This document shows positions 13,668-46,300 of a stretch of DNA of 64,000 nucleotides, in pieces. The position numbers and the translations under genes are program-made. Position 1 is the first letter of the stretch. Every line of letters starts with the position of its first letter. The stretch lies in IMG/VR virus record IMGVR_UViG_3300043427_002668, one strand, 5' to 3'. The notes below the pieces were generated by a model. It saw only the letters and a list, made by a program, of their open reading frames with translations, was not told the DNA's origin and made no database searches. The stretch comes from a virus. Taxonomy: Duplodnaviria; Caudoviricetes.

Positions 13668-14909
13668 ATGCAACTTATGAACATTCAACTTCGCCCTCAT
13701 CAGGAACGTGGTGTTGCTGCTATGCAACAGCATAACAAAGGTCAGATCATTGTTCCTACTGGTGGTGGAAAGACTCTCAAGATGATCTATGATGCTCTGC
13801 GTGAGTTCCAGTCTGAAACTCCTCAGACCATTGTTGTAGTCGCTCCGCGTATTCTGCTTGCAGAGCAACTGTCTGCTGAGTTTCTGGAGTTTATCACTAA
13901 CGCTAAAGTCTTCCACGTTCATAGTGGTGAGACGCATCACGAATCTTCTACTCGTCCGCGTGAGATTTACAACTGGGTTAATGCTAATGCCGACAATCAT
14001 CGCCTGATTGTAACCACCTACAACTCTCTGTCGCGTCTTCAAGTCGCAGAGATTGATGTGGATACGATCTACTTTGACGAAGCACATAACAGCGTTCAGC
14101 GTCACTTTTTCCCTGCTACAGAGCACTTCTCTGCTAACGCAAAACGTGCGTACTTCTTCACTGCTACCCCCAAACATTCGCTTGCTGTGGGTAAACCAGG
14201 AATGAATGATTCTGCAGTCTACGGTCAAGTGATCTGCAAAGTTCCTGCTCCTGAGCTAGTTGAAGGTGGATACATTGTGCCTCCTAAAGTTATCGTCAAG
14301 CAACTGCCGATGGTAACTGGTAAGCAGACCAACTATGATCGGGACGCTGAGAATCTGCTGGAAACGATTGATGAGAACAGCGTCGGTAAGATCCTGATCT
14401 GTTCTAAGGCAACCAAGCAAATCGTTGCTCTGGTGTCTGAAACTGATTTCTGCTCCGAACTAGAGAATCGCGGTTACTCTTGGATGTATATCACTGCCAA
14501 GACTGGTGCTGTGATTGATGGTCGCAAAGTGAACCGTGAGGTATTCTTTGACACCCTATCTGCCTGGGGTAAGGATAACGACAAAAAGTTTGTTGTTCTA
14601 CACCATAGCATCCTCGCTGAGGGTATCAACGTCAGCGGTCTGGAAGCGGTACTCTTCCTCCGTAATATGGACTTCATTGGTATCAGTCAGACCATCGGAC
14701 GTTGCATCCGTCTGCATCACGATGATGCGAAAGGTATGCGCGATGGACGTATTGAACCTGGCAACCTCACTCAGTATAGCAAATCGTTTGGTCTGGTTTG
14801 TGTGCCTGTGTACTCTAAGGTTGGTATCAGCACTGCTCGCGCAGTTCAGTCTGTTGTTGATACTATTTTTCAGAAGGGGGAACCTGCCATCAGTGTGGTT
14901 CGCAGGTGA
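13668..14909 (+). CDS. SF2 (DEAH/ResIII-like) helicase
   Basis: LRPHQ, PTGGGKT, FDEAH, TATP, LAEGINV, QTIGRCIR. Confidence 0.92.
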   Translation: MQLMNIQLRPHQERGVAAMQQHNKGQIIVPTGGGKTLKMIYDALREFQSETPQTIVVVAPRILLAEQLSAEFLEFITNAKVFHVHSGETHHESSTRPREIYNWVNANADNHRLIVTTYNSLSRLQVAEIDVDTIYFDEAHNSVQRHFFPATEHFSANAKRAYFFTATPKHSLAVGKPGMNDSAVYGQVICKVPAPELVEGGYIVPPKVIVKQLPMVTGKQTNYDRDAENLLETIDENSVGKILICSKATKQIVALVSETDFCSELENRGYSWMYITAKTGAVIDGRKVNREVFFDTLSAWGKDNDKKFVVLHHSILAEGINVSGLEAVLFLRNMDFIGISQTIGRCIRLHHDDAKGMRDGRIEPGNLTQYSKSFGLVCVPVYSKVGISTARAVQSVVDTIFQKGEPAISVVRR

Positions 14910-14932
14910 GTCTCACTGAGAACCCAGTCTCC

Positions 14933-14958
14933 ATCAGGGTGCAAACCCTGATTTTTTT
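14933..14958 (+). terminator. Rho-independent terminator
   Basis: ATCAGGGT-GCAA-ACCCTGAT followed by T6. Confidence 0.8.
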
Positions 14959-15030
14959 GCATTTCTACTGCAGACGTGCTATGATAGGTCTGCTGCAACC
15001 AAATCAACGATTTTTTGGAAAGTATAACAA

Positions 15031-15204
15031 ATGGAAGGATTCACAATGTATAAAGATGAGTACGCTGCGATTCCTTATGGAAAACAGTATCTCATTATAC
15101 ACAAGGGTCAACAACTTGAGAAACTTTGTAAGACTGAGGCATCAGCACGAAAGTACATCACAGATCACAAGAAGGGTAAAAGTGTAGCACAACTCCCATT
15201 GTAA
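15031..15204 (+). CDS. Hypothetical protein (57 aa)
   Basis: MEGFTMYKDEYAAIPYGKQYLIIHKG... Confidence 0.55.
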   Translation: MEGFTMYKDEYAAIPYGKQYLIIHKGQQLEKLCKTEASARKYITDHKKGKSVAQLPL

Positions 15205-15205
15205 C

Positions 15206-15240
15206 AAAGGGGGGACGCCTAAAATGTTCCAATAGTGTAT
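15206..15240 (+). promoter_or_regulatory. Repeated intergenic element, copy 4
   Basis: AAAGGGGGGACGCCTAAAATGTTCCAATAGTGTAT. Confidence 0.8.
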
Positions 15241-15251
15241 CAACACAAATC

Positions 15252-15854
15252 ATGACAGTTCTTTCTATTCTCAATGAAACTATTGAGGAAGCAGTTGAAA
15301 ATAGCAATCAAGAATGGAAAGGTTCTCCATTTGAACCTCTGACTCTTATCACTAATGATGAGCGTGGTCGTTGGGGTGAAAAGTTCCTCTTCCGTATCAT
15401 TACTGAGGTTGCTAAGATTGAATCTAAGTGGGATGGTGATTGTAACACCCGCCCTGAAGATGGTGGCACTTATGACATCCTCGTCAATCTGATTAAGAAA
15501 CTCAAGAATGAAGTAAAGACTGCATTTTCGTGTGCTAAGAGTGCCAACTGGCAACATGAGAACATCTATGCTAAATCTGTCTGGGACAAATTGACGTTTG
15601 TTGATGTAGACTATGATAAGATCTACATTACTGTCCTGACTCCTGCTAACATGGAGAAACTCTTTCAGAATGAGAAAGATCCTATTCTTGGAAAGAAAGC
15701 AACTCTCCGTGAATCTCAAGAGGATAAGTGGAAGTTTGATTTCTCCCGTGTTACTGTTGCAAATGCTATCAAAGCAGGTTATACTTTCTGTTATGACGTA
15801 AATAACCCTGACGATGCTGGGGTTGTCTCTCACCTTGTTAAGCACTTTGGTTGA
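15252..15854 (+). CDS. Putative PD-(D/E)xK restriction endonuclease
   Basis: ERGRWGE helix, TYDILV...NEVKTA catalytic-type motif; stop overlaps the methyltransferase start. Confidence 0.6.
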   Translation: MTVLSILNETIEEAVENSNQEWKGSPFEPLTLITNDERGRWGEKFLFRIITEVAKIESKWDGDCNTRPEDGGTYDILVNLIKKLKNEVKTAFSCAKSANWQHENIYAKSVWDKLTFVDVDYDKIYITVLTPANMEKLFQNEKDPILGKKATLRESQEDKWKFDFSRVTVANAIKAGYTFCYDVNNPDDAGVVSHLVKHFG

Positions 15855-16930
15855 TGAAAAACATCTACGACTTCTTTCTTCCGATCTATCAAAAGTTTGG
15901 TATTGATACTGTGTGTCAAGAACTGTACCTGCATAAAGGTACAGTGAACCGTTGGATTGAGAAGAAAGAAGTTCCTCCACAATACTATTTTGATTTGTGT
16001 AGGTTAGCAGATGTGCCAGTTCTTTACTCTAACTTTACTGAAAAGCAAAAGGATCAGTTCTTTACTGATCCAAATACTGCTGAGTATTGTTACAATCAAA
16101 CTCTCAAGATTCTAGGTGATCTTGGTGTAGATTTGCGTGAATACACCTTTATTGAACCATCAGCAGGTGATGGTAGTTTCTATAACATTCTACCCATCTA
16201 TCAGCGTGTTGGTGTTGACATCGAACCTCAATGTGATGGTGTAGAGAAACAAGACTTTTTAAGGTGGAAACCTGATACTCAAAAGAACATTTGTATCGGC
16301 AATCCACCATTTGGACTCAGAGGACATTTAGCCCTTAAGTTCATCAATCATGCCGCACAGTTCTCTGATTTCGTATGCTTCATTCTACCGCAGTTGTTTG
16401 ATAGCAACGGCAAAGGTAGTTGTAAATCAAGAGTGAAAGGTATGAATCTGATTCACACTGAAGTTGTGGATTCTTCATTTCACTATCCTGATGGCAAAAC
16501 TGTGACCGTAAATGTAGTCTTTCAGATCTGGGCGAAGGACTACAAAATCGAGGAGGAAGTTGTTGATCTGACTAACATCATCAAACTCTATTCTCTCTCT
16601 GATGGTGGCACACCAGGAAGCACACGAAACAAACAACATCTGTACTCTTGTGACTATTATTTGCCATCAACGTGTTTCGGTGAAGAGAGTGTAAAAGTCT
16701 ATGATGACTTTGAGAATCTACCACATCGTAGAGGTTATGGAATTGTAGCACTTGCAGACAAAGATGTGATTGATAATGTGATGCAATCAATTAACTGGTC
16801 TGATGTAGCATTTGCGTCTACAAATGGTGCATTTAATCTTCGATTCGACATCATACAGAAAACTATTTGGAAGCACCTTCCAGATTCTCTCAAGCAATAT
16901 CAAAATCCTTTATTGTCTGCGTTGAACTAA
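15854..16930 (+). CDS. N6-adenine DNA methyltransferase (gamma-type motif order) with N-terminal HTH-like extension
   Basis: KDQFFT (motif X), FIEPSAGDGSF (motif I), IGNPPFG (motif IV), C-terminal TRD-like region. Confidence 0.9.
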   Translation: MKNIYDFFLPIYQKFGIDTVCQELYLHKGTVNRWIEKKEVPPQYYFDLCRLADVPVLYSNFTEKQKDQFFTDPNTAEYCYNQTLKILGDLGVDLREYTFIEPSAGDGSFYNILPIYQRVGVDIEPQCDGVEKQDFLRWKPDTQKNICIGNPPFGLRGHLALKFINHAAQFSDFVCFILPQLFDSNGKGSCKSRVKGMNLIHTEVVDSSFHYPDGKTVTVNVVFQIWAKDYKIEEEVVDLTNIIKLYSLSDGGTPGSTRNKQHLYSCDYYLPSTCFGEESVKVYDDFENLPHRRGYGIVALADKDVIDNVMQSINWSDVAFASTNGAFNLRFDIIQKTIWKHLPDSLKQYQNPLLSALN

Positions 16931-16964
16931 AGGGGGGACTCCCAAAGTGTCCTAGTAGTGTAAG
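16929..16964 (+). promoter_or_regulatory. Repeated intergenic element, copy 5
   Basis: AAAGGGGGGACTCCCAAAGTGTCCTAGTAGTGTAAG. Confidence 0.85.
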
Positions 16965-16977
16965 ACGCATCCAATCT

Positions 16978-17232
16978 ATGCCTCGCGCTCGCAAGCAAAC
17001 TGCAAATGTTGAAGTTGTTGCTAACGAAGTGAAAGTTCCTGAGGTTCTCATCACTCGCCAGCAATATCTGCAAGACATTAAAGTTCGCTGGCAAATCCAT
17101 CAGTATGAAGTCAACAAACTTCGTGAAGATGTGAGTAAAGTTACTCAAACTGTTTTTCCTTATGTGAAGAACGCAATGGATTATGTTCTCGATCAATATC
17201 AGCAAATCCGCTCCAAATACGCCACTAATTGA
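16978..17232 (+). CDS. Hypothetical protein (84 aa)
   Basis: Start moved to ATG 16978 after element copy 5; MPRARKQTANVEVV... Confidence 0.7.
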   Translation: MPRARKQTANVEVVANEVKVPEVLITRQQYLQDIKVRWQIHQYEVNKLREDVSKVTQTVFPYVKNAMDYVLDQYQQIRSKYATN

Positions 17233-17242
17233 AGTGGTACAT

Positions 17243-17268
17243 GGGAACTCAATGAGTTCCCTTTTTTT
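17243..17268 (+). terminator. Rho-independent terminator
   Basis: GGGAACTC-AAT-GAGTTCCC followed by T7. Confidence 0.85.
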
Positions 17269-17276
17269 GTTTTATG

Positions 17277-17310
17277 AAAGGGGGGACGCCCAAAGTGTCC
17301 TAGTAGTATG
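17277..17310 (+). promoter_or_regulatory. Repeated intergenic element, copy 6 (includes the ATG)
   Basis: AAAGGGGGGACGCCCAAAGTGTCCTAGTAGTATG. Confidence 0.85.
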
Positions 17311-29318: not shown

Positions 29319-32300
29319 ATGAAGAACACAATTAAATTCTATTCAATTGTAGAAAGTCTAGTACCAGAGTACGTTAAAATAGAATTTCCGTTAGTCGTAG
29401 AATTTTTATCACAGTATTATAAATCTCAAGAAAATCAAAGTGCTGCTCTTGATATAATTCATAATATTGATAAGTACGTCCAGATTGATAGTGTTGCAAA
29501 TTTAGATTTAACAACAACACTTACATATCCACTAGAATTTGAAAATGAGATCTTTATATCTTCGGGGAAGGATCTTCCAAAAAATTATGGATTAATTAAA
29601 ATTGATAATGAAATAATATGGTATGAAAGATTAATAGATGAAGAAGTAACTACATCAGTTTTTACAATTAATCCAGGATCGACTTCTATTATTTCCACAG
29701 ATGTTATCTCTGATTGGATTGGAAAAATACTTATTATTAGAGATAGTCAAGGAAATATTGTAAATTCAACAAAAATTTTATCTATAGAAGACGGACTAAG
29801 CGTTCTTACAGATTCTCCACTAATTATTGACACTAAATCTAGTGTTTATAATTCTTCAAATACATATACCTGTGAAATTAATGGAAATAGACTTATAAAT
29901 TGTACTAGAGGATTTAATGCTACAACTGCATATGATTCTGACAGTACTACCGACGAACTAGTTTATGAAGAAACTTCGATTGATACGCATAATTTAGGAT
30001 CTGAAATAACAAATTTAAGTATAATATTCCTCACAGAATTTTTTAAAAAGATTAAAGTTCAAATAACTCCTGGATTTGAAGACGAAGAATTCTATGAAAA
30101 AATTAATGAAGCAACTTTTATTCGTAATATAAAACAATTCTACCAATCAAAAGGATCTGACTGTTCTTTTGAGATTCTCTTTAGAGCACTTTTTGGAGAA
30201 GATATAAGTATTATTAGACCAAGAGATTTTGTTATTCAAGCTTCTGATGCTCAATATAATATTTTCAGAGACTTGGTTGTAGAACAATTTGAAGGAAACC
30301 CAGAAGATCTAGAAAATCTAACGTTATATCAAGATGCATATTTAAATATTCCACAGTCAAAAGGAACAATTGCTAAAATTGAAAAAATTCAAAGAGGAGA
30401 TGTATTTTATTATACAATAAGTTTAGATCAATCCAAAGAAAATACTTATTCTTCAAATTTAGGCCAGTTTAGTATTCATCCTAAAACAAAAACAACAATA
30501 GATGTTACTGTTAACAGTGATTTTATTGATGTTGATTCTACCATAGGATTTCCAGATTCAGGTGAACTCTTAGTACAGAATACTAATGGAACATCTTTTG
30601 TCGTATCATATTCGTCAAGAACGTCAACACAATTTTTAGATTGTAATGGAATAAATCAGGATATAGGCATCAATTCTACTATTCGTCTGAATACTTTTGC
30701 ATATGGATATAATGGATCAGAACAAATTAAGGTATTTGTTGGTGGTGTTCTATCTTCAGTAAACATTGAGTCTTCTCCATATTATTCATCTCCAGATGAA
30801 AAAATAAAAATCAAAACCATAGGTAAAAATTTAACTGATATTAGAGCGGATAATTGGTTCTATAATATAACAACAAAATATGATGTAAAGGATATAACTT
30901 TAGTTGATACTTCTAACTTAGTTTATCAAATAACTTTGTATGACGATAGCATTTTAAAAATAGGAGATTCTGTTTCATTATTATACAGCGAAGGAATTGT
31001 CAAAAATGGCATCATAACTGGTCAATCAAACAAAAAATCATTTTTTGTAGTTGGGTTTGAAGATATAGATTTATCTATCAAATATACTTTGAAAAAAAAT
31101 ATTTTAAAGGTAAATTCATTAAATTATCCAGAACTTTCAAAATATTCCACAAACGTTCAGAATGTTTATATCGATAGAAATCAAAATATTTTTGTAAATT
31201 CACAATCATTACCTAATTATGTCTTCGAACCTTTATTAATAACTGATCGAACAGTAACTTTTTCCGGTTCGTATATTGCGTCGGAAACAATTAATGTCGT
31301 TTCACACAAATTTTATACCGGAGATTCTGTAGTTTATGAACCTGGAGAAGGAAATAACAAATTAGATATCAAAAAAGGAATCTATTTTGTTTATGTTGTA
31401 GATGGGAATACTATTAAAATTGCTAGAAGTAGAGAAAATATATACACTCAAAATTTTATTAAGGTAACCGGAGATGTTACAAATAATAAGTTTATATTAG
31501 AATCATTTACAACTACAGAACTTGAGACTAAAAAGCTGCTACCACAAAATATTTTTAGAGAAATATCAACACCTGGAATTCCCCCAAAAAATTCTAAAAT
31601 AGAAACTTCTCCAGGAACAACAGGAGTATTTGTCAATGGAGTTGAGTTATTAAACTATAAATCCAAAGATATTCTGTATTATGGAGAAATAGAAGAAATT
31701 TTCCCAACTGCAGGTGGAAATGGATATGATATTATCAATCCACCTGTACTGAGCATAGAAGATGATAATGGTTCTGGAGCAAACGGTTATGTGTCAATTG
31801 TTGGATTTTTGGATAGGGTTGATATTGTTGATCCTGGATTCGATTATGTAGAAACTCCGACTGCTATTATTTCTGGGGGAAATGGAAAGGGAGCTGAAGT
31901 ATCTTTAAATCTAACATCTGTAGATTATTCAGCATTTTTTAATGCAAATATTGGAATCAATACTACCAACGACACAATAGGATTTACTACTTATCACAAG
32001 TTTAGAAATAATGAAGTAGTTCTTTATGATCCACAAGGACAAACTAAAATAACAGGGTTAAGTACAAATTCTCAATATTATGCTTCAGTAATTGATCCTC
32101 TTACAATTAAATTATATAAAAATTTAGAAGACTCTTCTGCAGGAATTAATACTGTCAATTTAACAGGAATTGGTACAGGAAGACAATCATTTAAATCTGT
32201 TGCAAAGAAAAAGCAAATAGGTTCAGTACAAGTAATCAATTCTGGATTTGGATATGAAACTAAAAAAAGAACAGTATCTTCTGTAGGAATTGATACTTTT

Positions 32301-35300
32301 TCGGGAACAATTACTATAAAAAATCATGGTTATCGTGAAGGGGAGATAATAACTTATAATTCAACTGATACGGATATAGGTGGACTTACCTCAGGTTCTT
32401 CTTATTATGTAAGTTTTGTTAGTGAGAATAAATTTAAACTATCTAACGTTGGTCTTGGAAATACTGAAAAAGACTTTTTCTATAAAACAGGAAATTACAT
32501 TAATTTTACATCAATTGGACTAGGAACTCACTCTTTTAATTATGAACCAATAACAATAACAGTTATTGGAAAAACTGGAATAGGAACCACTTATTCAAAT
32601 CAAGTAAATTTAAGGCCAATATTTACAGGGAAAGTTACATCGGTTCATTTGGAAAATAAGGGATTTTTGTATGGATCTGAGATTATTAATTATAACAGAC
32701 AACCAAATGTAACATTATTGAGTGGTAAAAACGCTCAGGCAAAACCAATAATACAAAATGGAAAAATAGTAGAAGTTGTAATAATTAATAGTGGAACTCA
32801 GTATTATTCTACTCCAAAAATTAATATTGTAGGAAATGGGTCTGGTGCCGTTCTTACTCCTATTATAGAAAATAATGTATTGAAAAAAATAAAAGTTATT
32901 TATGGTGGAGGTGGATATAAAGAAAATACAATAATTAATATAGTTCCATCAGGATCTGAGTCTAAATTTGAAACTAAGATTGCAACCTGGAGATTTAATC
33001 TTTTTGAAAGACTTTTTAGAAATAATCAAATTCCTCCAGATGATGGAGTCCTTTATGAAGGAAAAAATGATAAAAATGGTTTAGAGTATACTCATTTATA
33101 TGCACCTAGAAAATTAAGGTCTTCTGTTCTAGGGCAAAGAAGTCTTAATGGAAAAGTAGTTTATAATCCCGATTTAGAGTTAATCAATGGATCAGAATCT
33201 ATTTCACTAACCCATTCTCCAATAATTGGATGGGCATATGATGGAAATCCAATTTATGGACCTTATGGTTATACTTCTATAACCGGCGGTTCAATCAAAC
33301 AAATGGTTTCTGGTTATGAACTTATAGGTAATGCCGCAGTAAATCGACCAAATTATCCTTTTGGTTCTTTTGTTGAGGATTATTCATTTACTAATAATGG
33401 AGATCTAGATGAACATAATGGAAGATTTTGTGTTACTCCAGAATTTCCAAATGGGGTATATGCGTACTTCTGTACCATTGATACAGGTCTTCCACAAAAT
33501 AGTGAGCCATTTCTCAATTATAAAAAACCACAATTTCCTTATGTAATAGGAAATACTTATAAATCCTCTCCTATTGAATTTAATTTCTTATCCACTTCAA
33601 ATTTAAATAAATTCAATTTAAATGAATCATCCCTATTAAGAAATACAAAACCATATGGGATATTAGACAAATATACTCAATACGACCAAATTATTGATCC
33701 AAATAAAATTAAAAACCAAGTATCAAGAATAAAGTCAGTATCTGAGGGTAAAGTTGATTTTATTGGAATTGTAACGGGAGGAAATTCTTACAGAGTTAAT
33801 CAAGGTATTACACTGTCAGATCAGAAAACAAAAGCTTTTGTTTCCGAAATAGAAGGAAAATATGTTAACAATATTAGTGTGGCTACTACTACAATTTCTA
33901 ATATTGAATTTGTTCGAAATAATGATAAGTATGTTGGTTTTTCATCTGTACCTCACAACTTACTTACTAATGATCTTGTAGTTATTACCTCAACATATGA
34001 TTATAATATAACTGGCAATATAGATGTAAAAAATTACACATTAACCTTAAGATCTGGTATTGAGTCCTCATCAGTAACCGGAATAGTTACCTATTTAGAT
34101 GTCACAGGATCCTTAGATGAATCAAAAATTAGAGAAAATGACATATATTTTCTTGGAAATGAACAGATTAAAATATTAAATATAGATCCACAAAAGTCTA
34201 GATTAAGAATATTGAGAAATCAATATGGAACCATTGGGGTTTCTTCTATTTCTGTAGGAACTGCTATAACGGAGAATCCAAGAAAGTTTGAAATTAATTT
34301 TGGTATTACAACTTCATATGATTTTAATTACAACAGACAATTATACTTTGATCCTATTTTATCTGTTGGACTGGGGACAACTTCCGGAGTTGGAATTAAT
34401 TCAACTTTATTCTTAAGTACAAATAATTTTAAACATCCAGTATCTATAGGAACTGGCACTACTACATTTTTATATTTTTCTGATATTAAAGATCTTCAAG
34501 AGTATACTAGTGGTGGATATGTTGATTTAGTAGATTCTACCAATACTTCATTTAATGTATCTAAGAAAAAAATAGTTTCTATAGGATCAAGTGCTATAGG
34601 AATTAATTTTAATAGTTCAGCACTGTCTGGAACTGGTGTTATTTCATATGTAAATAAATGGATTTCTAAGGATATTCCTACAAGAACAATATATTTACCA
34701 AATCATAATTTAAATACTGGCGATTCCTTAATTTATTCTTCAAATGGTGGCACAAGAGTTTCTGTTTCGACAAATGGAATTTCCAATTTCCAACTTGGAG
34801 AAAATTCAATTCTTTATGTTGCAAAAATCTCTAGCGATTTAATTGGCATATCTACAATAAAAGTTGGATTGGGATCAACCGGAACGTTTGTTGGTGTTGG
34901 ATCAATTTCGTCTTCTATCTTATACCTCACTTCTGTTGGAACAGGTAACACTCATAGTTTTACTACTAACTATAATAATATTTTTGTTGCCGATTTATCA
35001 AAAAATGTGGCAACAATACAAACAAAGGAACCTCATGAATTAATTAGAAATGATTATGTTAATGTATCAGTTTTATCTGGGGTCAGTACATCAATTAAAT
35101 TTACATATAATAAAAAACATAGAAGAGTTTTGGTCGATCCAAAAACTTTTGTATCATCGAATGTAGATCTAATAAAAAATATTATAACAATCAATAAACA
35201 TAATTTTAAAACAGGACAGAAAGTTATTCACACTTGCACTGGATCTCCAGTGGGTGGGTTGATAAATGATAAAATTTATTTTGTAATAGTAATAGATCAG

Positions 35301-38300
35301 AATAAAATAAGGTTATCCGATACTTTTTATAATGCTATAAAGGCAGAACCAAATTACGTTATCTTTACGTCAACTTCATCCGGAACTATTTCAAAAATTA
35401 ATCCACAAATTGATATAGTCAAAAATTCTCAAGTAATTTTTGACTTATCGGACTCATCATTATCATTTACAAATAATTCAAAAGATTATCCCGCATTTAG
35501 TCTAGATTTTTATACAGATTCAACATTTACTAACAAGTATGAAAGTTCCGGATTAACCAAAAAATTTGATGTTACTAGATCTGGATTGGTTGGAATTGAC
35601 AGTCAGGCAAGGGTAACTCTAAATTCCACCAATTCCCCGAACATTTTATATTATAAACTAAATCCAATTAATACAAAAATTAATTCTAATGAAAATCTTG
35701 AAGTGATTATTGATACGGAAATAACAAACTCAAATAAAATTCAGATAACTGAAAGTTCATATAATGGAAGACATAAAATTGTTGGGGTTGGAAGCACTAC
35801 CTTTACATTTGATTTAGAAAAAAATCCAGAAACATCTTCGTATTCATCAGAATCTTCATCTATAAAATATTCTACAAATTCTTCCTCCGCAACTGGACAA
35901 ATAAGTAATGTTACGATTTATTCTACAAACACAAATTTAAAGTCTTTACCAAAAGTTGTTTCTTCTTCGGATATATCTAATTCTAGCGCAATATTATACG
36001 CTGAAGGATTTGGGATAGGAAGAGTAGAGCAAAAAAATATAGAAATACTAGACATTGGATTTGACTACTCTTCAGATTTTTCAATTAGACCGACCGCAAA
36101 GTTCTCATCTTTGTTTGAAATAGAATCATATTCTACTATAGAAAGTATTTCTGTTCTTTCGGTCGGTAAACAATATTCAGTAAAACCAGATTTAGTTCTA
36201 TTTGATACTTATACTAAAAAAATAATTAATGATGTTGTTCTGAATTATAATATTCAAAATCATAGTGTAACTATTCTTAAAAATACAAATAATATCACTG
36301 GAAATTATATTCCTTTAATTATACCAATAAACAACAGTAATGGAGTTGGAATAAGTTCAATTTCTTATAATTCTTCCAATAAGACGGTAACTGTTGGATT
36401 AGCAAAATCTTATAGTAGTATAAGTGACTTCCCATTTGCTGTAGGGGATAGTGTAGTTATTGAAAATGTAAGCGTTGGTATAGGATCCACATTAAAGGGA
36501 TATAATTCTTCAGAATATGAATATAGTTCATTTGAAATTATAAGTAGAGATCCAAATATTGGAGGTTCTAATGGAACTATAACCTATAGTATGAATAATT
36601 ATTTGAGCGATTCTGATATTTTAGGATCCTATGATTTGTTAAATTCTTCAGGTAAAATTATCAATACAAATAATTTACCAATCTTTGAGGTTAAAACTAA
36701 GAAAAAACAATTCTTTAAAAATGAAACTATTACATCAAATGGTTCTGCAGGAATAATTGAAAACCACGATACTGATAGAGATATTATTAAGGTCTCAACT
36801 GTTGATGATTTTTATGTGGGAAATATAGTAAAAGGATCATCCTCAAATACAATAGGAAAAATTAAAAAGATAAGTGAATTTGATCTTAATTATAATGTAT
36901 CTTCATCTACAGTTGTCAATAAAGGATGGTCTAAAGAAACTGGATTCTTAAATTATAACACTCAAAGAATACACGATAGTGATTATTATCAATATTTTTC
37001 ATATTCTGTTCAATCAAAAGTTGAATATGAAAAATGGAATGAAAATGTAAGTAAATTAACTCACACTTCTGGATTTAAAAAATTTAGTGATTTAATAGTT
37101 GATTCGGATTCAAAATATTCTGGAATGTCCAAGGATCAAAATAGCAGTGACATATCAGGAATATCAGACATCCATAGTGCTGCAAGCGTTCATTGTTACT
37201 ATGATTTTGACTTAGTAAGGGAGAATAATATTTCCTTTAATTCAGAAATAGGTTCTAATGAGATAACATTTAACTCAAAAATACTTCAGGATTACATAGA
37301 ATCTGTTGGCAATAGAGTATTAATTATTGATGATGTGTCAGATTCTTTTAGTAGTAGTCCGAGGACAAGTAAGTTTAGTATTGTGGATTCTTTTGATATT
37401 TCCGAAGATCCTTTTCTTTCTAACAGATATAAAAAGTATTTCTTTAGTATCAGAGATAAGGTATATTTGGATCCGGTTGAGGTTGGATTAATATCACTCC
37501 TACACGATGATAATTTTGGTTATTTAAATCAATATGGATTTACTAATTCGGAATATTCATTGGGAACTTTTGATTTTTCAATCAGTTCTGGATTTGGTCA
37601 ACTAAGATTTTTCCCAATTAATTTTTCTGAGCAAATTTATAGTGTCAATCTATTTTCTATCGGTTTTCCAAATGTTGCTGCTGGAGTAGGAAGCACAAAT
37701 ATTGGCAATATTGTAAATATATCTTCAAATTATGTTAATGTCAGTACAGCAAATACTACTTCGATAGTAAGTATTTCTTCTACCTATAGATCATCTAAAG
37801 TTTTGGTTCAAATTGGTTCTACAGATGGAAATTACTATGAAATAAATGAATTTACTCTTTTGAATGATGGGACAAATGTAAGTTCACTCGAATATGGAAT
37901 GTTGAATACAAATTCACTCAACTCGTATTCAACAAGTGGAATATCTACTTTTAATTTTAATATTGTTGGGGGCGATTTAAATGTTGAAATAAATCCAATA
38001 TCTGGTTATGGATCTAATATTAATGTAAATGCCTTTGTTGTTTCTATAGCTAATACTACTTCTACTGGAATTTCCACAGAACAATATTCTAATGGATATA
38101 TTAACTCCAGATTTAAACAAATATCTTCATCAGTAACTCCTTCAGCAAACGTAATTTCAAGTTTCGACTCTGCATCCAATGGAGCTTATTACATAGTTTC
38201 TATCGAAGATTTAACAAATAATGAGTATCAAACTTGCGAAATTATAATTGTCAGAAATGACGCCACTTCAGGAATTTCCGAATTTGGTGTAGTCCAAACA

Positions 38301-41300
38301 AACAATTCTTTAGGAGAATTTACTTCAGATATTTCTGGGTCGAATTGCAGATTATTATTTACACCAATTCCAAACATTGATGTTGAAGTTAGAGTTTGTG
38401 AATTTTCAATTTCAGAATTGGATGAAACATATCCAACAGAACTTGATTTTGGAAATGGTTTTTCCGTACAATACACAACATCCGAATATACTGGAACAGA
38501 TATTGATATAAGAAAATCGTTTGATTTAACTTATAAGAAAAATCCAATTTTCCAAAAAACTTTTAGTGGAATATCTAGTGGAGTTGTTAATGTTGAAGAT
38601 AATACAATACAAATTCCATATCATTATTTTGTAACAGGTGAAGAAGTTCAATATTCTTACCCAAATTCAAATGTATCGACTGCAAATGCTATTGGAATCG
38701 CTACAACTACCATTAGTGGAATAGGAAATACTGATAGATTACCCAACACTCTTTATATTGTAAAGGTGAATGACTCAAAAGTAAGAGTTTCTGCTTCAGC
38801 ATCAGAAGCTCTCAAAACAGTGCCAAATGTTCTGAATATAACTTCAGTTGGAATAGGGTCTCATACCTTTACCTCAAAGAAACAAAATTCAAAATGTTTA
38901 ATTTCCATAGACAATATAGTTCAATCTCCTATTGTTTCTACATCTATTACTTCAATATTAGCAACATCAGTTTCTAAAACTACAAATGTAATAGACATAT
39001 CAGATCCAAGCGAATTTTATGGCGGAGATTTTATTAAAATTAATGATGAAATTATGAAGATAAGATCTGTTGGTTTTGGAAGTACGAATTCGATTTTGGT
39101 TCAAAGACCGCTTCTAGGAACTTCACCCCAAAGTCATAATTCATCCGATATCGTTACAAAAATTTCTGGTCAATACAATATTGTTAACAATACACTGCAC
39201 TTTTCAGAACCTCCATTCGGAAAAGTACCATTTTTAAATGAAAATAATAGGGGAGATGAAGAAGATTATTATAAATTAGAAACTAGTTCAAAGTTTAATG
39301 GAAGAGTTTTTATAAGATCTGGGGTCGAAAATTCTTCAGAAGAAACTTATAAAAATAACTATATTTTTGATAGTATATCTTCAAATTTCACTGGATTTAC
39401 TACAGAATTTACTCTGACATCTAACAGTTCTAATATAAGTGGGATTGTTACTTCAAATGCAATTGTTTTGGTTAATAACGTTTTCCAATTTCCAAATAAA
39501 AATACAGGTTCTATCGAAGAAAATCAATATGAACTAAAAGAGTTTTCTGGTATTACAAGTATTACCTTTGAACCAAGTACTTTGACAAATTATTCTTCTG
39601 ATATTAATAAAACTAATTTACCTAGAGGTGGAATCATACTCTCTGTAGCCTCTACTGAGGGATTTGGTTATCAACCTCTTGTAGCGGCAGGTGGAACTGC
39701 TATTGTGTCTTTGGCTGGTACTATTCAGTCAATAAGTATCGGAAACAGTGGATCTGGTTATAGATCTGGAATTCAAACTGCAGTAAATGTTAGTGTGGCG
39801 ACTTCTAGCACAGGAATAGTTAATATTACTAAAATAGGAACCGCTACAGTAAATAATGGTAATATTGTAAGTGTTGCTATTACAAATCCCGGAATAGGAT
39901 ATACGTCAACAAATCCACCTATTGTTATATTCGATTCTCCTTTACCTTATTATAATATTCCATTAGTTTATAATTCATCATCTTCCGGAATTGGTACTGG
40001 AGCAAAAGTTAACATTATTGTGGGACAAGGATCTAGTGTTATTAATTTTGAAATTTCAAACTATGGATTTGGTTATGAGATTGGAGATATCTTAACAGTA
40101 AATATTGGAGGATCTACTGGAATTCCTACAAACACTTCTTTACCATTCAAAGAATTTAATTTAACAGTGGATCAAATTTATAATGATATATTCTATGGAT
40201 GGTCTGTTGGAGATCTTCAGGTTTTAGATTCTGTTGATGATCTAATAGATGGAAATCGCAAATTATTCCCAATTAAACTAAATGGACAACAAATTTCTAT
40301 TAGAGCAAGGAAGGGTTCAAGTATAGACGTTCAGGCAACATTATTAGTGTTTATAAATGACATATTACAAGTTCCCGGAGAAGGATATATTTTTAATGGT
40401 GGAAGTGTTATTGAAATCAGTGAATCTCTAAAAGAAGGAGATAAATTAAGAATTCTATTCTATAAAGGAACGGGAAGTGTTGATACTCAAAATGTAGATA
40501 TCCTTGAACCTGTTGAAATTGGCGATTTAGTTAATATAAATTCCACAGATTTAATTCTAGATCAAAGTGATAGATTAACGGAGCAAATTACTAATAGTGA
40601 TTTAATTGTAACAAATTCTTATTTTGGTGTTGGTATTTCGTCAGATTCAACTGTAGTCAGACCAATTACATTATGCAAACAAACTGAAGATAGATTTGTT
40701 GATGGAAAATATGTATCTAAAGATAGAAACATATATGAACCACTAATTTTCCCAACGACTAATATTATAGAAAATGTTAGTACATCTTCAACAACTATTT
40801 TTGTTGAAAGTGTAAAAACTTTCTTTGACAGTGGAAAAGAATACATTCAAAATAATGTAGACAATATTCCACAAAAATCCGTAAGAATATTATCACAAAC
40901 ATCAACATCCGTTGCTATTGCCACTGCAATAGTTTCTGCAGCTGGGTCCATAACTTCAATAGTAATTTCTGATGGGGGGGTTGGATATTCAACGAATCCT
41001 TCAGTGATTATACAGAATCCAGTGGGTTCCGGTGTAACAATTGGTATTGGATCTACAGCGTTAGTATCTTCTACAATATCCGTGGGTGGAACAGTTTCAT
41101 CAATAACTGTTGTAGATTCTGGAATTGGATATACAACATCAAATCCACCAGTAGTAATGATAGAACCACCATTTGCAACATATGAAGACATTAACAATGT
41201 TACATATAATGGTGACTTTGGAATAATAGTCGGTATTGCTACAACATCTCTTGTTGGAGTAGCTTCGACAGGCATTGTATTTGATCTATTTGTTCCAACA

Positions 41301-41753
41301 TCATCTGCTCTCAGAAATACTTCAATAAATGTGGGAGTTGCTACTACTGGTATAAGTGGAATACAGACAAATTATCTTTTTGTTGTAAGCAACTCAAATA
41401 TAGGAAATGGAGTTACTTCATTAAATTCTTCTGGATCAATAGTTGGTGTTGGTTCTACTTTCTTGGACGGAATTTATAGTGCTGTTAAAGTTTCTGTAGC
41501 GCAGACATCAGTTCCCGGTGTTGGGATTACAAATGTCTCCAGGGTTGTTGTAAGTGTTAGGAGTTATAATGGATTGACTGGAACTGGATACAGTGAGTTT
41601 TTTGGAAATTATTCTTGGGGAATATTATCAAACTTAACAAGAAAAAATCCGCAATCATTTACTGCAAATGTAAATGGATATAGTGGGATTTCTTCCTCTC
41701 CGATTGTTATTAGATCAAATTCACTTAAATATATTGGGTATTCTACCACATAA
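29319..41753 (+). CDS. gp7: Giant baseplate wedge initiator, gp7-like (4144 aa)
   Basis: Lies between gp6 and gp8; FLSQYY...; HSPIIGWAYDGNPIYGPYG; RIHDSDYYQYFSYS; many I-x-I-x-N-x-G-x-G-Y beta repeats. Confidence 0.75.
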   Translation: MKNTIKFYSIVESLVPEYVKIEFPLVVEFLSQYYKSQENQSAALDIIHNIDKYVQIDSVANLDLTTTLTYPLEFENEIFISSGKDLPKNYGLIKIDNEIIWYERLIDEEVTTSVFTINPGSTSIISTDVISDWIGKILIIRDSQGNIVNSTKILSIEDGLSVLTDSPLIIDTKSSVYNSSNTYTCEINGNRLINCTRGFNATTAYDSDSTTDELVYEETSIDTHNLGSEITNLSIIFLTEFFKKIKVQITPGFEDEEFYEKINEATFIRNIKQFYQSKGSDCSFEILFRALFGEDISIIRPRDFVIQASDAQYNIFRDLVVEQFEGNPEDLENLTLYQDAYLNIPQSKGTIAKIEKIQRGDVFYYTISLDQSKENTYSSNLGQFSIHPKTKTTIDVTVNSDFIDVDSTIGFPDSGELLVQNTNGTSFVVSYSSRTSTQFLDCNGINQDIGINSTIRLNTFAYGYNGSEQIKVFVGGVLSSVNIESSPYYSSPDEKIKIKTIGKNLTDIRADNWFYNITTKYDVKDITLVDTSNLVYQITLYDDSILKIGDSVSLLYSEGIVKNGIITGQSNKKSFFVVGFEDIDLSIKYTLKKNILKVNSLNYPELSKYSTNVQNVYIDRNQNIFVNSQSLPNYVFEPLLITDRTVTFSGSYIASETINVVSHKFYTGDSVVYEPGEGNNKLDIKKGIYFVYVVDGNTIKIARSRENIYTQNFIKVTGDVTNNKFILESFTTTELETKKLLPQNIFREISTPGIPPKNSKIETSPGTTGVFVNGVELLNYKSKDILYYGEIEEIFPTAGGNGYDIINPPVLSIEDDNGSGANGYVSIVGFLDRVDIVDPGFDYVETPTAIISGGNGKGAEVSLNLTSVDYSAFFNANIGINTTNDTIGFTTYHKFRNNEVVLYDPQGQTKITGLSTNSQYYASVIDPLTIKLYKNLEDSSAGINTVNLTGIGTGRQSFKSVAKKKQIGSVQVINSGFGYETKKRTVSSVGIDTFSGTITIKNHGYREGEIITYNSTDTDIGGLTSGSSYYVSFVSENKFKLSNVGLGNTEKDFFYKTGNYINFTSIGLGTHSFNYEPITITVIGKTGIGTTYSNQVNLRPIFTGKVTSVHLENKGFLYGSEIINYNRQPNVTLLSGKNAQAKPIIQNGKIVEVVIINSGTQYYSTPKINIVGNGSGAVLTPIIENNVLKKIKVIYGGGGYKENTIINIVPSGSESKFETKIATWRFNLFERLFRNNQIPPDDGVLYEGKNDKNGLEYTHLYAPRKLRSSVLGQRSLNGKVVYNPDLELINGSESISLTHSPIIGWAYDGNPIYGPYGYTSITGGSIKQMVSGYELIGNAAVNRPNYPFGSFVEDYSFTNNGDLDEHNGRFCVTPEFPNGVYAYFCTIDTGLPQNSEPFLNYKKPQFPYVIGNTYKSSPIEFNFLSTSNLNKFNLNESSLLRNTKPYGILDKYTQYDQIIDPNKIKNQVSRIKSVSEGKVDFIGIVTGGNSYRVNQGITLSDQKTKAFVSEIEGKYVNNISVATTTISNIEFVRNNDKYVGFSSVPHNLLTNDLVVITSTYDYNITGNIDVKNYTLTLRSGIESSSVTGIVTYLDVTGSLDESKIRENDIYFLGNEQIKILNIDPQKSRLRILRNQYGTIGVSSISVGTAITENPRKFEINFGITTSYDFNYNRQLYFDPILSVGLGTTSGVGINSTLFLSTNNFKHPVSIGTGTTTFLYFSDIKDLQEYTSGGYVDLVDSTNTSFNVSKKKIVSIGSSAIGINFNSSALSGTGVISYVNKWISKDIPTRTIYLPNHNLNTGDSLIYSSNGGTRVSVSTNGISNFQLGENSILYVAKISSDLIGISTIKVGLGSTGTFVGVGSISSSILYLTSVGTGNTHSFTTNYNNIFVADLSKNVATIQTKEPHELIRNDYVNVSVLSGVSTSIKFTYNKKHRRVLVDPKTFVSSNVDLIKNIITINKHNFKTGQKVIHTCTGSPVGGLINDKIYFVIVIDQNKIRLSDTFYNAIKAEPNYVIFTSTSSGTISKINPQIDIVKNSQVIFDLSDSSLSFTNNSKDYPAFSLDFYTDSTFTNKYESSGLTKKFDVTRSGLVGIDSQARVTLNSTNSPNILYYKLNPINTKINSNENLEVIIDTEITNSNKIQITESSYNGRHKIVGVGSTTFTFDLEKNPETSSYSSESSSIKYSTNSSSATGQISNVTIYSTNTNLKSLPKVVSSSDISNSSAILYAEGFGIGRVEQKNIEILDIGFDYSSDFSIRPTAKFSSLFEIESYSTIESISVLSVGKQYSVKPDLVLFDTYTKKIINDVVLNYNIQNHSVTILKNTNNITGNYIPLIIPINNSNGVGISSISYNSSNKTVTVGLAKSYSSISDFPFAVGDSVVIENVSVGIGSTLKGYNSSEYEYSSFEIISRDPNIGGSNGTITYSMNNYLSDSDILGSYDLLNSSGKIINTNNLPIFEVKTKKKQFFKNETITSNGSAGIIENHDTDRDIIKVSTVDDFYVGNIVKGSSSNTIGKIKKISEFDLNYNVSSSTVVNKGWSKETGFLNYNTQRIHDSDYYQYFSYSVQSKVEYEKWNENVSKLTHTSGFKKFSDLIVDSDSKYSGMSKDQNSSDISGISDIHSAASVHCYYDFDLVRENNISFNSEIGSNEITFNSKILQDYIESVGNRVLIIDDVSDSFSSSPRTSKFSIVDSFDISEDPFLSNRYKKYFFSIRDKVYLDPVEVGLISLLHDDNFGYLNQYGFTNSEYSLGTFDFSISSGFGQLRFFPINFSEQIYSVNLFSIGFPNVAAGVGSTNIGNIVNISSNYVNVSTANTTSIVSISSTYRSSKVLVQIGSTDGNYYEINEFTLLNDGTNVSSLEYGMLNTNSLNSYSTSGISTFNFNIVGGDLNVEINPISGYGSNINVNAFVVSIANTTSTGISTEQYSNGYINSRFKQISSSVTPSANVISSFDSASNGAYYIVSIEDLTNNEYQTCEIIIVRNDATSGISEFGVVQTNNSLGEFTSDISGSNCRLLFTPIPNIDVEVRVCEFSISELDETYPTELDFGNGFSVQYTTSEYTGTDIDIRKSFDLTYKKNPIFQKTFSGISSGVVNVEDNTIQIPYHYFVTGEEVQYSYPNSNVSTANAIGIATTTISGIGNTDRLPNTLYIVKVNDSKVRVSASASEALKTVPNVLNITSVGIGSHTFTSKKQNSKCLISIDNIVQSPIVSTSITSILATSVSKTTNVIDISDPSEFYGGDFIKINDEIMKIRSVGFGSTNSILVQRPLLGTSPQSHNSSDIVTKISGQYNIVNNTLHFSEPPFGKVPFLNENNRGDEEDYYKLETSSKFNGRVFIRSGVENSSEETYKNNYIFDSISSNFTGFTTEFTLTSNSSNISGIVTSNAIVLVNNVFQFPNKNTGSIEENQYELKEFSGITSITFEPSTLTNYSSDINKTNLPRGGIILSVASTEGFGYQPLVAAGGTAIVSLAGTIQSISIGNSGSGYRSGIQTAVNVSVATSSTGIVNITKIGTATVNNGNIVSVAITNPGIGYTSTNPPIVIFDSPLPYYNIPLVYNSSSSGIGTGAKVNIIVGQGSSVINFEISNYGFGYEIGDILTVNIGGSTGIPTNTSLPFKEFNLTVDQIYNDIFYGWSVGDLQVLDSVDDLIDGNRKLFPIKLNGQQISIRARKGSSIDVQATLLVFINDILQVPGEGYIFNGGSVIEISESLKEGDKLRILFYKGTGSVDTQNVDILEPVEIGDLVNINSTDLILDQSDRLTEQITNSDLIVTNSYFGVGISSDSTVVRPITLCKQTEDRFVDGKYVSKDRNIYEPLIFPTTNIIENVSTSSTTIFVESVKTFFDSGKEYIQNNVDNIPQKSVRILSQTSTSVAIATAIVSAAGSITSIVISDGGVGYSTNPSVIIQNPVGSGVTIGIGSTALVSSTISVGGTVSSITVVDSGIGYTTSNPPVVMIEPPFATYEDINNVTYNGDFGIIVGIATTSLVGVASTGIVFDLFVPTSSALRNTSINVGVATTGISGIQTNYLFVVSNSNIGNGVTSLNSSGSIVGVGSTFLDGIYSAVKVSVAQTSVPGVGITNVSRVVVSVRSYNGLTGTGYSEFFGNYSWGILSNLTRKNPQSFTANVNGYSGISSSPIVIRSNSLKYIGYSTT

Positions 41754-43350: not shown

Positions 43351-46300
43351 ATGCCACAGGAAACTAACCTCAACGTATCACCATATTTTGATGATTTTGA
43401 TCCAGAAAAAAATTATCATAAGGTTCTTTTCAAACCGGGTTATCCAATCCAGGCTAGAGAATTAACTACATTACAATCAATTCTCCAAAATCAAATTGAG
43501 CAACAGGGAAAGCATTTATTTCAAGAAGGATCTGTTGTAATTCCAGGAAAAGTTAGAATTGATAGTCCTTTATCTGCAGTAGAAATTGAAAGTACTTATA
43601 TAGGAACGCCAGTATCTCTATACTTTGACAAACTTTTAGGGAAAAAACTAAAAGGATCAACAAGTGGAGTTTTGGCCGAAGTTGTTTATACGTTAAGGTC
43701 AGTTGATTCTCAAAGAAATAACTTTACTTTATATTTAAAGTATCTTGAGTGTGGTGGTCCTCAATTAGAAAATAAGACTTTTTTTGATGGTGAGACTTTA
43801 ATTTTACAATCTTCTCTGACTTACGGAGAATTGGGATTTACTATTCAATCCGGTGAAGGAATTTGTAATACTATAAGCAATAATTCAAATTCGTTTGGGT
43901 CATCAGCAATAGTTTCTGATGGAGTTTATTTTGCTCGCGGGCATTTCGTGTCGGTAAAAGAGCAAAGAATAATATTAGATCAATATAGTTCTTCACCATC
44001 TTATAAAATAGGTTTTAATGTACTAGAGAGTATAGTCTCTTCAGACGATGATCCATCACTTTCTGATAACGCAAAGGGATTTTCAAACTACACTGCTCCA
44101 GGAGCAGATAGATTAAAAATTGAACTAATCCTTGAAAAAAGAGGTATATTGGAATCTCCTGATAATTTTATCGAAATTATCAGAATTGAAAACGGAAATC
44201 CAATTTTTAAAAAAGAATCAACTCAATATAGTTTAATCAGAGATGAGTTAGCAAGAAGAACATTCGATGAATCTGGAGATTATTTTGTAAGACCCTTTAC
44301 AGTTTTTGTTAGGGACACTTTAAATGATAGAACTAGAACTGATGGATTATATTATAAAAATCAATTAACTTCTACAGGTGTTGCTCCATCCGACGATTTG
44401 ATGATCTATCAAATTGGACCAGGAAAAGCTTATGTAAATGGTTACGATATTGAAAAAATATCTTCATCAGAAGTTATAGTAGAAAAACCAAGAACCACAA
44501 AAACTATAGAAAATGAAGTTCTTAGGTATGATGCTGGAACTTCATTGGTTTTGAATAGAGGGTATGGATCTCCGGTTGTTGGATTAGGAACAACATCATA
44601 TGTCGAATTAAAAGATTCTAGAATTGGCGTATCTTCTCATAGTGCTTCAGGAAATACTATTGGTGTTGCTAGAGTATATGATTTTGTTCCAGAAACGGAT
44701 TATGTTAATGACACAAGTAGACTTAATGTAAGATTATTTGATATTCAAACTTATACAAAAGTTGGATTAACTACTAATATTTCTTCATTATCAACTCCAG
44801 CTTTAATTAGAGGTAAAAAAAGTAAAGCTTCTGGATACTTGTCTTCAAGTATAAGTAATTCAAGAATTTTAACACTTTATAATGTTTCTGGTTCATTTTT
44901 AGAGAATGAACCAATTTCAATTAATGGAATTGATGACGGTAGACTTATTAATGAAGTAATCGACTATAATATATCAGATATAAAATCAATATACTCCACA
45001 ACTGGAATTTCAACATTTAATGCGGATGTTGTATTATCACAGAAGACTCCAATTGCACCCCTCGGAACCAAGTTTAAAATAACAGGTTCTTCTTCTGGCA
45101 TCAGTACCGTATCTGCCGGAATTGACGTTGTTTTTACTAATCAAATTAAAGTTGGAGATATAGTTTCATATGCTAGCACCACATTAACTGGAGACACTAT
45201 ATACAATAAAGTTGAAAGTGTTTCTAATGATGGTCTTTCTTTCAATATTTCAGGAATTACAACGATATCTGGAATATGCAATGGTTCTCTACCATCATCT
45301 ACCGTAGAAGTCAACAATATCATTAAGGTATTTGGATTATCAGATTCTACAAATTCATCTTTAATGACTAAATTGAGATTTGAAAATATTTCAAATGTAA
45401 ATTTAGAAAATCAAGAAATTTTACAAAGAAGATCATTTAATAATATATCTTTTTCTGGCAATTTTATTAGGTTAACTATCACCGAACCAGATTTATATTT
45501 TGCATCCTTCGATGAGGATAGATTTATTATTACATACTCAGATGGTATTATTGAACCAATGAGAATTGATAAGTATGATTTGGACACAACTGGCAAAATA
45601 TTAACCTTCTATGGTTTGACAAAAGCAAGTGGCACTGCAAATGTAATTACTACGGTAAGAAATGTAAAACCAAGTTATAAGATTAAAAAATTAAACAAGG
45701 CATCAACTTTAGTTGTAAATAAATCAATTAAAACTTCATCTGGAATAGGAACAACAACTTTAAATGATGGATTGACTTATAGTAATGTTTATGGTCTACG
45801 AGTTCAAGATCAAGAAATTTGCCTCAATGTTCCAGATGTAGTAAGAGTTATTGCTGTTTTTGAATCTACTAATAGTCAAGATCCAACTTTACCAAAAATT
45901 CAACTCACTGGATTTACAGGATCGTTTAACAACAATCAAGACTTTATAATAGGTGAGCAAATAATTGGGGAAAGTAGTGGAGCAGTTGCATTAGTTGTAA
46001 ATCGTTCGGCATCCGATTCTTTAGAATATGTCTATCTAAACGATAGTCAGTTTACTGTGGAAGAAAGAATTACTGGAGAACAATCAAGTAATAGTGCCAC
46101 AATTACTAGTGTAATTCTAACATCATCTAAAGATATAACTCAGAATTTTTATCTCGATGATGGTCAAAGACCATCATTCTATGATTATGGTAGAATAATT
46201 AGAAAAGAAAATACTGAAAATCCAATAGGAAAACTTAAAATAGTATTTCAAAATTATACTATTGATTCTGGAGACACTGGAGAGTTAATAACAGTAAATA

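Follow-up and report, generated by a model that had tools for sequence, protein, structure and literature searches.

Orthodox Type II restriction-modification (R-M) systems, of which TaqI is an example, consist of two adjacent genes, one for an M.TaqI-like methyltransferase and one for a small nuclease with the residue pattern E...D...ExK. The methyltransferases of phages are, as a rule, orphans with a shielding role. Here we analyze a 64,000-nt stretch of viral DNA (the window; IMG/VR virus record IMGVR_UViG_3300043427_002668) in which the gene of a methyltransferase, M, directly follows the gene of a predicted nuclease, R (open reading frame 1, ORF1). A reading made from the sequence alone (the sequence-only reading) had proposed a Type II-like R-M unit at this locus, and predicted folds, conserved residues and gene linkage support that proposal. 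We assign a probability of about 0.78 to the reading that the two genes constitute a Type II-like R-M unit of a lytic T4-like phage.

The pair shares with orthodox Type II systems the adjacency of its genes, an M.TaqI-like methyltransferase and a small nuclease that carries E...D...ExK and is predicted to be a homodimer; moreover, direct homologues of both genes occur in bacteria as M-R pairs. It differs in that Pfam, NCBIfam and PADLOC contain no model of its nuclease family, which RefSeq records as 'hypothetical protein', in that it is carried by a lytic phage and in that R comes first. The R-first order has a bacterial precedent in the Eco29kI system, which is plasmid-borne in bacteria and in which R precedes M, the genes partly overlap and form one operon, and the problem of establishment is solved by the arrangement of promoters (PMC3113576). 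The two are likened by gene arrangement (R first, overlapping genes) and not by sequence. Unlike the plasmid-borne system, a phage genome would presumably enter the cell already methylated.

Complete Type II pairs also occur in lytic viruses of eukaryotes. Chlorovirus R-M systems degrade host DNA and marseillevirus systems exclude competing viruses; R is transcribed before M in melbournevirus, and the systems of melbournevirus and of PBCV-1 (CviAI) are GATC-specific (PMC7253447). With these systems the present pair has in common its residence in a lytic virus, the adjacency of its genes, purifying selection and, on the proposed reading, the bacterial origin of a complete Type II pair (PMC7253447). 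Unlike them, it belongs to a T4-like phage, to a separate viral clade and to an unnamed nuclease family.

Two features of T4-like phages are also close to this locus. The T4 endonucleases EndoII and EndoIV cut unmodified DNA and spare the phage's own hydroxymethylcytosine DNA, which is the same logic; the present pair would use site-specific methylation instead of global base replacement, and its nuclease belongs to another family. PeSL regulatory cassettes have been described in T4-like phages (PMC2839356, PMC4122927), and both there and here optional genes in hyperplastic regions are flanked by a short intergenic motif that recurs and that bounds insertions and deletions. The motif in the window differs from PeSL in that it has no sigma-70 consensus and, in place of a clear stem-loop, a short GGAC-N9-GTCC inverted repeat.

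Results

A coupled gene pair between two repeat element copies

The R gene (15252..15854, + strand) encodes 200 amino acids with the motifs ERGRWGE (residues 37-43), YDILV (74-78) and EVKTA (87-91). Its stop codon, TGA, overlaps the ATG start codon of the M gene (15854..16930, + strand; stop codon TAA at 16928-16930), which encodes 358 amino acids, so that the two are coupled through the sequence TGATG. The pair is bounded by two copies of a repeat element: copy 4, a promoter-like motif just 5′ of R (15207..15239, + strand), and copy 5, the right boundary (16930..16962, + strand). The interval between the copies holds R and M only. The sequence-only reading had described a 200-aa ORF with ERGRWGE and YD...EVKTA, its stop/start coupling to a methyltransferase with motifs X, I and IV in that order, and a pair that fills the whole interval between copies 4 and 5. 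All of these features are present at the locus, and no other gene lies between the copies.

The R gene product is predicted to be a PD-(D/E)xK nuclease

ORF1 matched no family in Pfam, NCBIfam or PADLOC, its only match in PHROGs was to a family of unknown function (E = 3e-4), and searches of the Protein Data Bank (PDB) with the single sequence and with a profile returned chance-level matches only. A word-indexed search found 49 ORF1 homologues with 41-94% identity, all of them unnamed, and a profile search across 1.84 billion cluster representatives yielded 499 members of the family (E up to 0.001; clusters at 50% identity). Residues D36, G39, G42, E43, D75, E87, K89, Q101 and H102, together with others, are invariant in the alignment of ORF1 homologues. 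Across a set of 83 non-redundant viral and bacterial relatives, conservation is 100% for E87, K89, Q101 and E103, 99% for D75, 96% for G42 and 95% for E43. The ratio of nonsynonymous to synonymous substitution rates (dN/dS) against several relatives is 0.07-0.11, indicating purifying selection.

We modeled ORF1 on the homologue alignment with AlphaFold2 (AF2) and obtained a mean predicted local distance difference test score (pLDDT) of 88.6. In the model, E43 lies on the helix of residues 35-53, D75 stands before the strand of residues 76-78, and E87 and K89 are found in the strand of residues 84-92. This layout fits the alpha-beta-beta-beta-alpha-beta core of the PD-(D/E)xK nucleases, with an acidic residue opening strand 2 and (D/E)xK in strand 3. 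A Foldseek search of the PDB placed NhoI at the top (E = 4.5e-5), ahead of MepB, I-Ssp6803I, the N-terminal domain of Eco15I and ThaI, while an exhaustive VIA-align comparison returned I-Ssp6803I (Z = 10.4), NhoI (Z = 10.1), Hjc (Z = 7.7), ThaI (Z = 7.2) and then many Type II restriction enzymes. Both fold searches were dominated by members of the PD-(D/E)xK superfamily.

The two best VIA-align matches share with ORF1 a compact PD-(D/E)xK core of similar size, with their Z scores reached over about 120 residues. They differ from it in sequence (12-15% identity) and in function, I-Ssp6803I being an intron homing enzyme and NhoI a methyl-directed restriction enzyme, and the genomic context of ORF1 is unlike that of both. 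Together, the model, the fold matches and the conserved catalytic residues bear out the nuclease fold that the sequence-only reading had expected at 15252-15854; as modeled, ORF1 is a PD-(D/E)xK nuclease with intact catalytic residues.

ORF1 probably acts as a symmetric homodimer. The homodimer model has an ipSAE of 0.80, as compared to 0.00 for the best control, its contacts agree by at least 98% between runs, and the partner has a pLDDT of 84 or more. When this mark was calibrated, 20 of 30 proteins with solved homo-pair structures attained it, as did 1 of 23 whose solved structures are single chains. The predicted interface consists of the N-terminal helix and the helix of residues 35-53.

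Some relatives of ORF1 carry N-terminal extensions, in which Pfam scans found no named domain and only coiled-coil noise. One relative (L047:2395-3004) is broken into two ORFs (76 and 145 aa); it lies on a long-read contig with 2.46x coverage, and a near-identical copy at L046 is intact. The split is either a sequencing error or a recent pseudogene.

The M gene product is a putative gamma-class methyltransferase with a helix-turn-helix

The M gene product contains DQFFT at residues 67-71, EPSAGDG at residues 101-107 and NPPF at residues 150-153, corresponding to the motif order X-I-IV, and a conserved C-terminal half follows. EPSAGDG and NPPF are near-invariant across 22 M homologues. The PADLOC Type II model MTase_II PDLC03280 matches residues 65-348 (E = 2.7e-55), covering profile positions 26-319 of 320 in a model that bears no specificity label, and PHROGs places M in a DNA methyltransferase family. 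M.TaqI is a weak sequence match around NPPF, and the AF2 model of M (pLDDT 88.4) matches the folds of M.TaqI, CamA and M.BseCI. The gamma class had been proposed from the motif order, and the PADLOC match, the weak match to M.TaqI and the M.TaqI-like folds agree with it: judged by sequence and model, M is a gamma-class, M.TaqI-like methyltransferase. A motif IV of the form NPPF favors adenine-N6 methylation, and for that reason M is probably N6-adenine-specific.

The dN/dS of M against several relatives is 0.09-0.12, again indicating purifying selection. Conservation in the family extends over the whole sequence and takes in the C-terminal half, where a target-recognition domain is expected; this suggests that the members share one specificity or have closely similar ones.

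The N-terminus of M (about residues 1-55; 15854..16018, + strand) forms a putative helix-turn-helix (HTH) module. The AF2 model has four helices at residues 5-51, two M homologues, P0135 and P0162, fall just short of the Pfam HTH_17 cut-off (E ~3e-5), and T30, R33 and W34 are invariant in the module. Most bacterial M homologues have the module as well; it is absent from some Patescibacteria.

Nuclease and methyltransferase are linked in viruses and bacteria

We found that M lies directly 3′ of the ORF1 relative in 22 of 24 IMG/VR loci. In a reciprocal look-up, all four M homologues on long contigs (4/4; 61-78% identity) were preceded by an ORF1 relative of 200-203 aa with 36-45% identity. Even two distant ORF1 relatives with N-terminal extensions (31-40% identity), on contigs of 26% and 51% GC, are followed by an M homologue at 48-50% identity. 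Pairwise identities of R and M are correlated, with a Spearman coefficient of 0.6-0.7. A tblastn search with ORF1 of 50,697 deposited phage genomes gave zero matches, so a complete R/M pair of this kind appears to be uncommon in lytic T4-like phages; relatives of M were found in the same genomes only at 30% identity or less.

One of the distant pairs (L051:4001-6103) lies on the marine contig of 51% GC, where its neighbors are DHFR, RNase_T, a T5orf172 gene and an ORF longer than 1,381 aa. Its nuclease has an N-terminal extension of about 150 aa without a known domain, and it has N in place of D36.

In bacteria, we scanned one genome per species with the M alignment, which returned 80 loci with 41-49% identity from Helicobacter, Brachyspira, Mycoplasma, Phytoplasma, Rickettsiales, Patescibacteria and many others, most of them with the HTH. 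A hidden Markov model (HMM) of the ORF1 alignment identified a family member directly downstream of M in 57 of these 80 loci, and in 58 after one iteration. A direct pattern scan of bacterial genomes with the ORF1 alignment found no relative, which reflects the limited sensitivity of that scan; the M scan and the neighbor HMM recovered the bacterial relatives. In RefSeq, the bacterial M homologues are named 'restriction endonuclease subunit M' and their nucleases 'hypothetical protein'; one UniRef entry of the nuclease family is named 'Restriction endonuclease'. R and M are adjacent in viruses down to 31% ORF1 identity and in bacteria, and the co-conservation expected of a true pair is observed.

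Gene order separates the two groups, with M before R at every bacterial locus and R before M at every viral locus. In a maximum-likelihood tree, the 27 viral methyltransferases group together in a single clade (support 100/98) that is placed among bacterial rows; the tree has a midpoint root only, and the direction of transfer is not established by it. We propose, from the tree and the gene order, that the pair belongs to a bacterial M-then-R family, of which one branch, with the order R-then-M, is found in aquatic viruses, the root being a midpoint root. One locus binned with bacteria, L056 (JABMNX010000051.1, 2,436 bp; a Candidatus Kaiserbacteria metagenome-assembled genome), has the viral order R-M and falls inside the viral clade beside L032. 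It is probably a mis-binned viral contig.

The pair behaves as an optional cassette

The repeat element is about 33 nt long and occurs in 11 copies within 3 mismatches, as compared to none in shuffled sequence; a looser threshold yields 13 copies, all on the + strand between 9647 and 24006. A consensus scan found neither a match to the sigma-70 consensus nor a T-run hairpin within the element. It has two parts, a GC-rich 5′ half that is lineage-specific and a conserved 3′ half with the core AAAGTGTCC followed by TAGTAGTGTA.

We compared positions 14909-17308 of the window with 80 helicase-anchored relatives (L136-L215), whose helicases have 87-98% amino-acid identity. Between the helicase and the DUF6267 gene, these relatives have anything from about 300 bp to about 3,900 bp, which marks the interval as a hyperplastic slot. 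A homologue of the 57-aa gene p57 (15031..15204, + strand), a conserved ORF that forms the left flank of the insertion site, follows the helicase in 79 of the 80 loci, and a homologue of the 84-aa gene p84 (16978..17232, + strand), a conserved ORF that forms the right flank, is found in 33. The R/M pair is present in only 4 of the 80 loci and is missing from 74.

Seven loci (L139, L140, L157, L142, L145, L146 and L210) have an empty site consisting of p57, one element copy and p84. Between the same two flanks, the window has p57, element, R, M, second element and p84. The 3′ half of copy 5 and the leader that follows are near-identical to the single element at the empty sites L139, L140 and L142. 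The empty-site junction therefore resembles the downstream junction of the window, and the insertion or deletion comprises the two genes plus one element copy. These empty sites in close relatives, at the same position, support the cassette idea of the sequence-only reading: the R/M pair is an optional cassette, gained or lost with one element copy between p57 and p84.

The element copy just 5′ of R has a variant, AAAWTGT, that is common to the window, L155 and L192, as if the 3′ half of the element travels with the cassette. The exact element of the window was not found at other loci, because relatives carry lineage-specific versions. Elsewhere, the pair is usually preceded by such a version or by a canonical TTGACA-N17-TATAAT promoter, and in more distant relatives this canonical promoter occupies the position equivalent to copy 4. 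Other contexts of the pair are after an SprT-like gene, before gp32 and beside DUF5824.

On the + strand, no terminator-like site is found outside coding sequence in 15207-17232. The first such site 3′ of the R/M pair is a hairpin with an 8-pair stem followed by a T-run (17243..17261, + strand), located after p84. Since M is followed by no terminator-like site, transcription may read through element copy 5. R and M themselves presumably form one transcription unit.

Evidence against a restriction-modification unit, and other readings of ORF1

Several observations weigh against reading the pair as an R-M unit. Searches with the PDB profile, Pfam, NCBIfam and PADLOC found no characterized restriction enzyme that resembles ORF1 by sequence. 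Fold matches with Z ~10 denote superfamily membership, not restriction function, and of the top two, one is a homing endonuclease and the other depends on methylation. In some comparisons the identities of R and M are decoupled (83% for R and 65% for M between the window and L011; 43% for R and 86% for M between the window and L020), which implies recombination between R and M and would be tolerable for an R-M pair only if the whole family has a uniform specificity. Three viral lineages (L007-9, L012 and L033) have an intact ORF1 relative without an adjacent methyltransferase. Lastly, the element flanking the pair is not a recognizable sigma-70 promoter, so that the transcription unit of R and M is a presumed one.

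In the lineages with a solitary nuclease, either another modification protects the genome or the nuclease needs no cognate methylase. One of them is a marine phage contig (L007:469-6187, also L008 and L009) with genes for Tet_JBP, a 259-aa unknown protein, ADDT, a P-loop nucleotide kinase and a T4 EndoIV-family protein, followed directly by an intact solitary ORF1-family nuclease and then by an HD-domain protein. This Tet/JBP base-modification cluster contains no methyltransferase of the M family. The gene set is that of a base-hypermodifying phage, in which a nuclease directed against unmodified DNA would fit with a different kind of self-protection. In another lineage (L033:3938-5764), the solitary nuclease precedes a phage-encoded gene for ribosomal protein S21 (Pfam E = 1.9e-13) and a 276-aa protein that matches no family.

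Fold membership leaves room for functions other than restriction. ORF1 could be a methylation-guided nicking or repair nuclease that works with its methyltransferase in strand discrimination or repair, in the manner of MutH-Dam or Vsr-Dcm. We consider this unlikely. MutH and Vsr do share the PD-(D/E)xK-type fold, and the vsr and dcm genes overlap, which parallels the overlap of R and M. However, their fold matches to ORF1 (Z = 4.6 and 4.1, respectively) are far below those of restriction and resolvase-type enzymes, and both act as monomers, whereas a symmetric homodimer is predicted for ORF1. Furthermore, N6-adenine methylation yields no deamination mismatch in need of repair, and the pair moves horizontally as an optional cassette and does not belong to a repair pathway. 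Nearby, neither MutS nor MutL was noticed as a partner, although the neighbors were not screened for them. The low Z scores, the predicted dimer and the mobile cassette led us to reject this function.

The cassette behavior also bears on whether ORF1 could be a homing-type endonuclease like I-Ssp6803I, free-standing, spreading between phage genomes and only incidentally next to a methyltransferase. Free-standing genes for homing endonucleases are numerous in T4-like phages, VIA-align ranks I-Ssp6803I first (Z = 10.4), and the R gene sits in a variable slot that it occupies in only 4 of 80 close relatives. Yet the same methyltransferase family is adjacent in viruses of 26-51% GC and at 57-58 of 80 bacterial loci from many phyla, the insertion or deletion comprises both genes together, R and M identities correlate, and the locus shows no intron, intein or target-gene context. 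The missing intron context and the consistent pairing with one methyltransferase family, in viruses and in bacteria, make the homing function very improbable, and we rejected it.

It is likewise very improbable that ORF1 is a modification-dependent nuclease (NhoI/DpnI-like) that cuts methylated DNA at targets marked by M. NhoI and the N-terminal domain of Eco15I, both methyl-directed, are among the best fold matches, and DpnI also matches (Z = 5.1). However, if the nuclease cut what its linked methylase produces, the combination would be suicidal for the 57-58 bacterial genomes with M-R. In addition, the phage genome itself would be marked by M, and both genes are under purifying selection; the suicidal pairing and the selection were our grounds for rejection. 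Finally, the idea that ORF1 no longer cuts DNA and is a regulator or DNA-binding partner of the methyltransferase can be set aside as scarcely credible: small regulatory proteins are common in Type II systems, but the full PD-(D/E)xK catalytic set is 95-100% conserved in the 83 relatives, dN/dS is ~0.1 and the methyltransferase already has its own HTH.

Source phage and host

The window resembles Kyanoviridae, and its helicase gene has 73-75% nucleotide identity to those of the Synechococcus phages SynMITS9220M01 and S-H38; from this identity, the virus is presumably a cyanophage. In SynMITS9220M01, three unrelated hypothetical genes lie between the helicase and the DUF6267 gene. DNA of the window occurs in freshwater metagenomes. 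The structural part of the window contains two giant ORFs on the + strand, 29319-41753 (4,144 aa) and 43351-51636 (2,761 aa).

Discussion

The locus combines those features of a Type II R-M system that can be judged from sequence and predicted structure: separate adjacent genes, an S-adenosylmethionine-binding motif I together with motif IV, a predicted nuclease fold with its catalytic residues and co-inheritance of the two genes. From these features we infer cleavage, a shared specificity, protection by methylation, regulation and a biological role.

In the proposed mechanism, the R gene product would be a small homodimeric PD-(D/E)xK endonuclease with a metal site formed by E43, D75 and E87-x-K89, and with Q101-x-E103 as a further conserved motif. 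M would methylate the same sites and thereby protect the phage genome. The genome would enter the cell already methylated from the previous infection, so that R can be made first, with M translated through its coupling to R. R would then cut unmethylated DNA, be it the host chromosome or the DNA of a co-infecting phage without the cassette. The N-terminal HTH of M probably autoregulates the unit, as in SsoII-type systems. A branch of the bacterial M-then-R family would have entered aquatic viruses, where the order is R-then-M. An R-first arrangement with translational coupling would be hazardous in a naive bacterium; for a phage with methylated packaged DNA, it would be harmless and would allow immediate attack.

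By analogy to the R-M systems of chloroviruses and marseilleviruses, the likely role of the pair is host DNA breakdown or the exclusion of rival phages. Close relatives, which mostly lack the cassette, would be vulnerable in mixed infections.

A broader and more tentative possibility, which we regard as rather doubtful, is that the virus-only R-then-M clade is an offensive weapon of non-hypermodified T4-like aquatic phages. Such a weapon would shred the DNA of the host or of cassette-free co-infecting phages. Because T4-like phages repair breaks by recombination, its cuts could also drive the cassette into the p57/p84 sites of rivals through recombination repair, a general form of homing. The solitary nucleases of the L007 kind would then be the same weapon with another form of self-protection.

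What is new here is the unnamed nuclease family, the reversed gene order of the viral clade and the behavior as a cassette; the mechanism itself is conventional. The filled and empty sites among near-identical phages provide a clean natural example of cassette turnover bounded by a regulatory repeat. Once one member of the nuclease family is characterized, hundreds of others would become annotated, and a new restriction specificity might emerge. For phage lineages without hypermodified DNA, the pair is a candidate mechanism for the breakdown of host DNA or for competition between phages.

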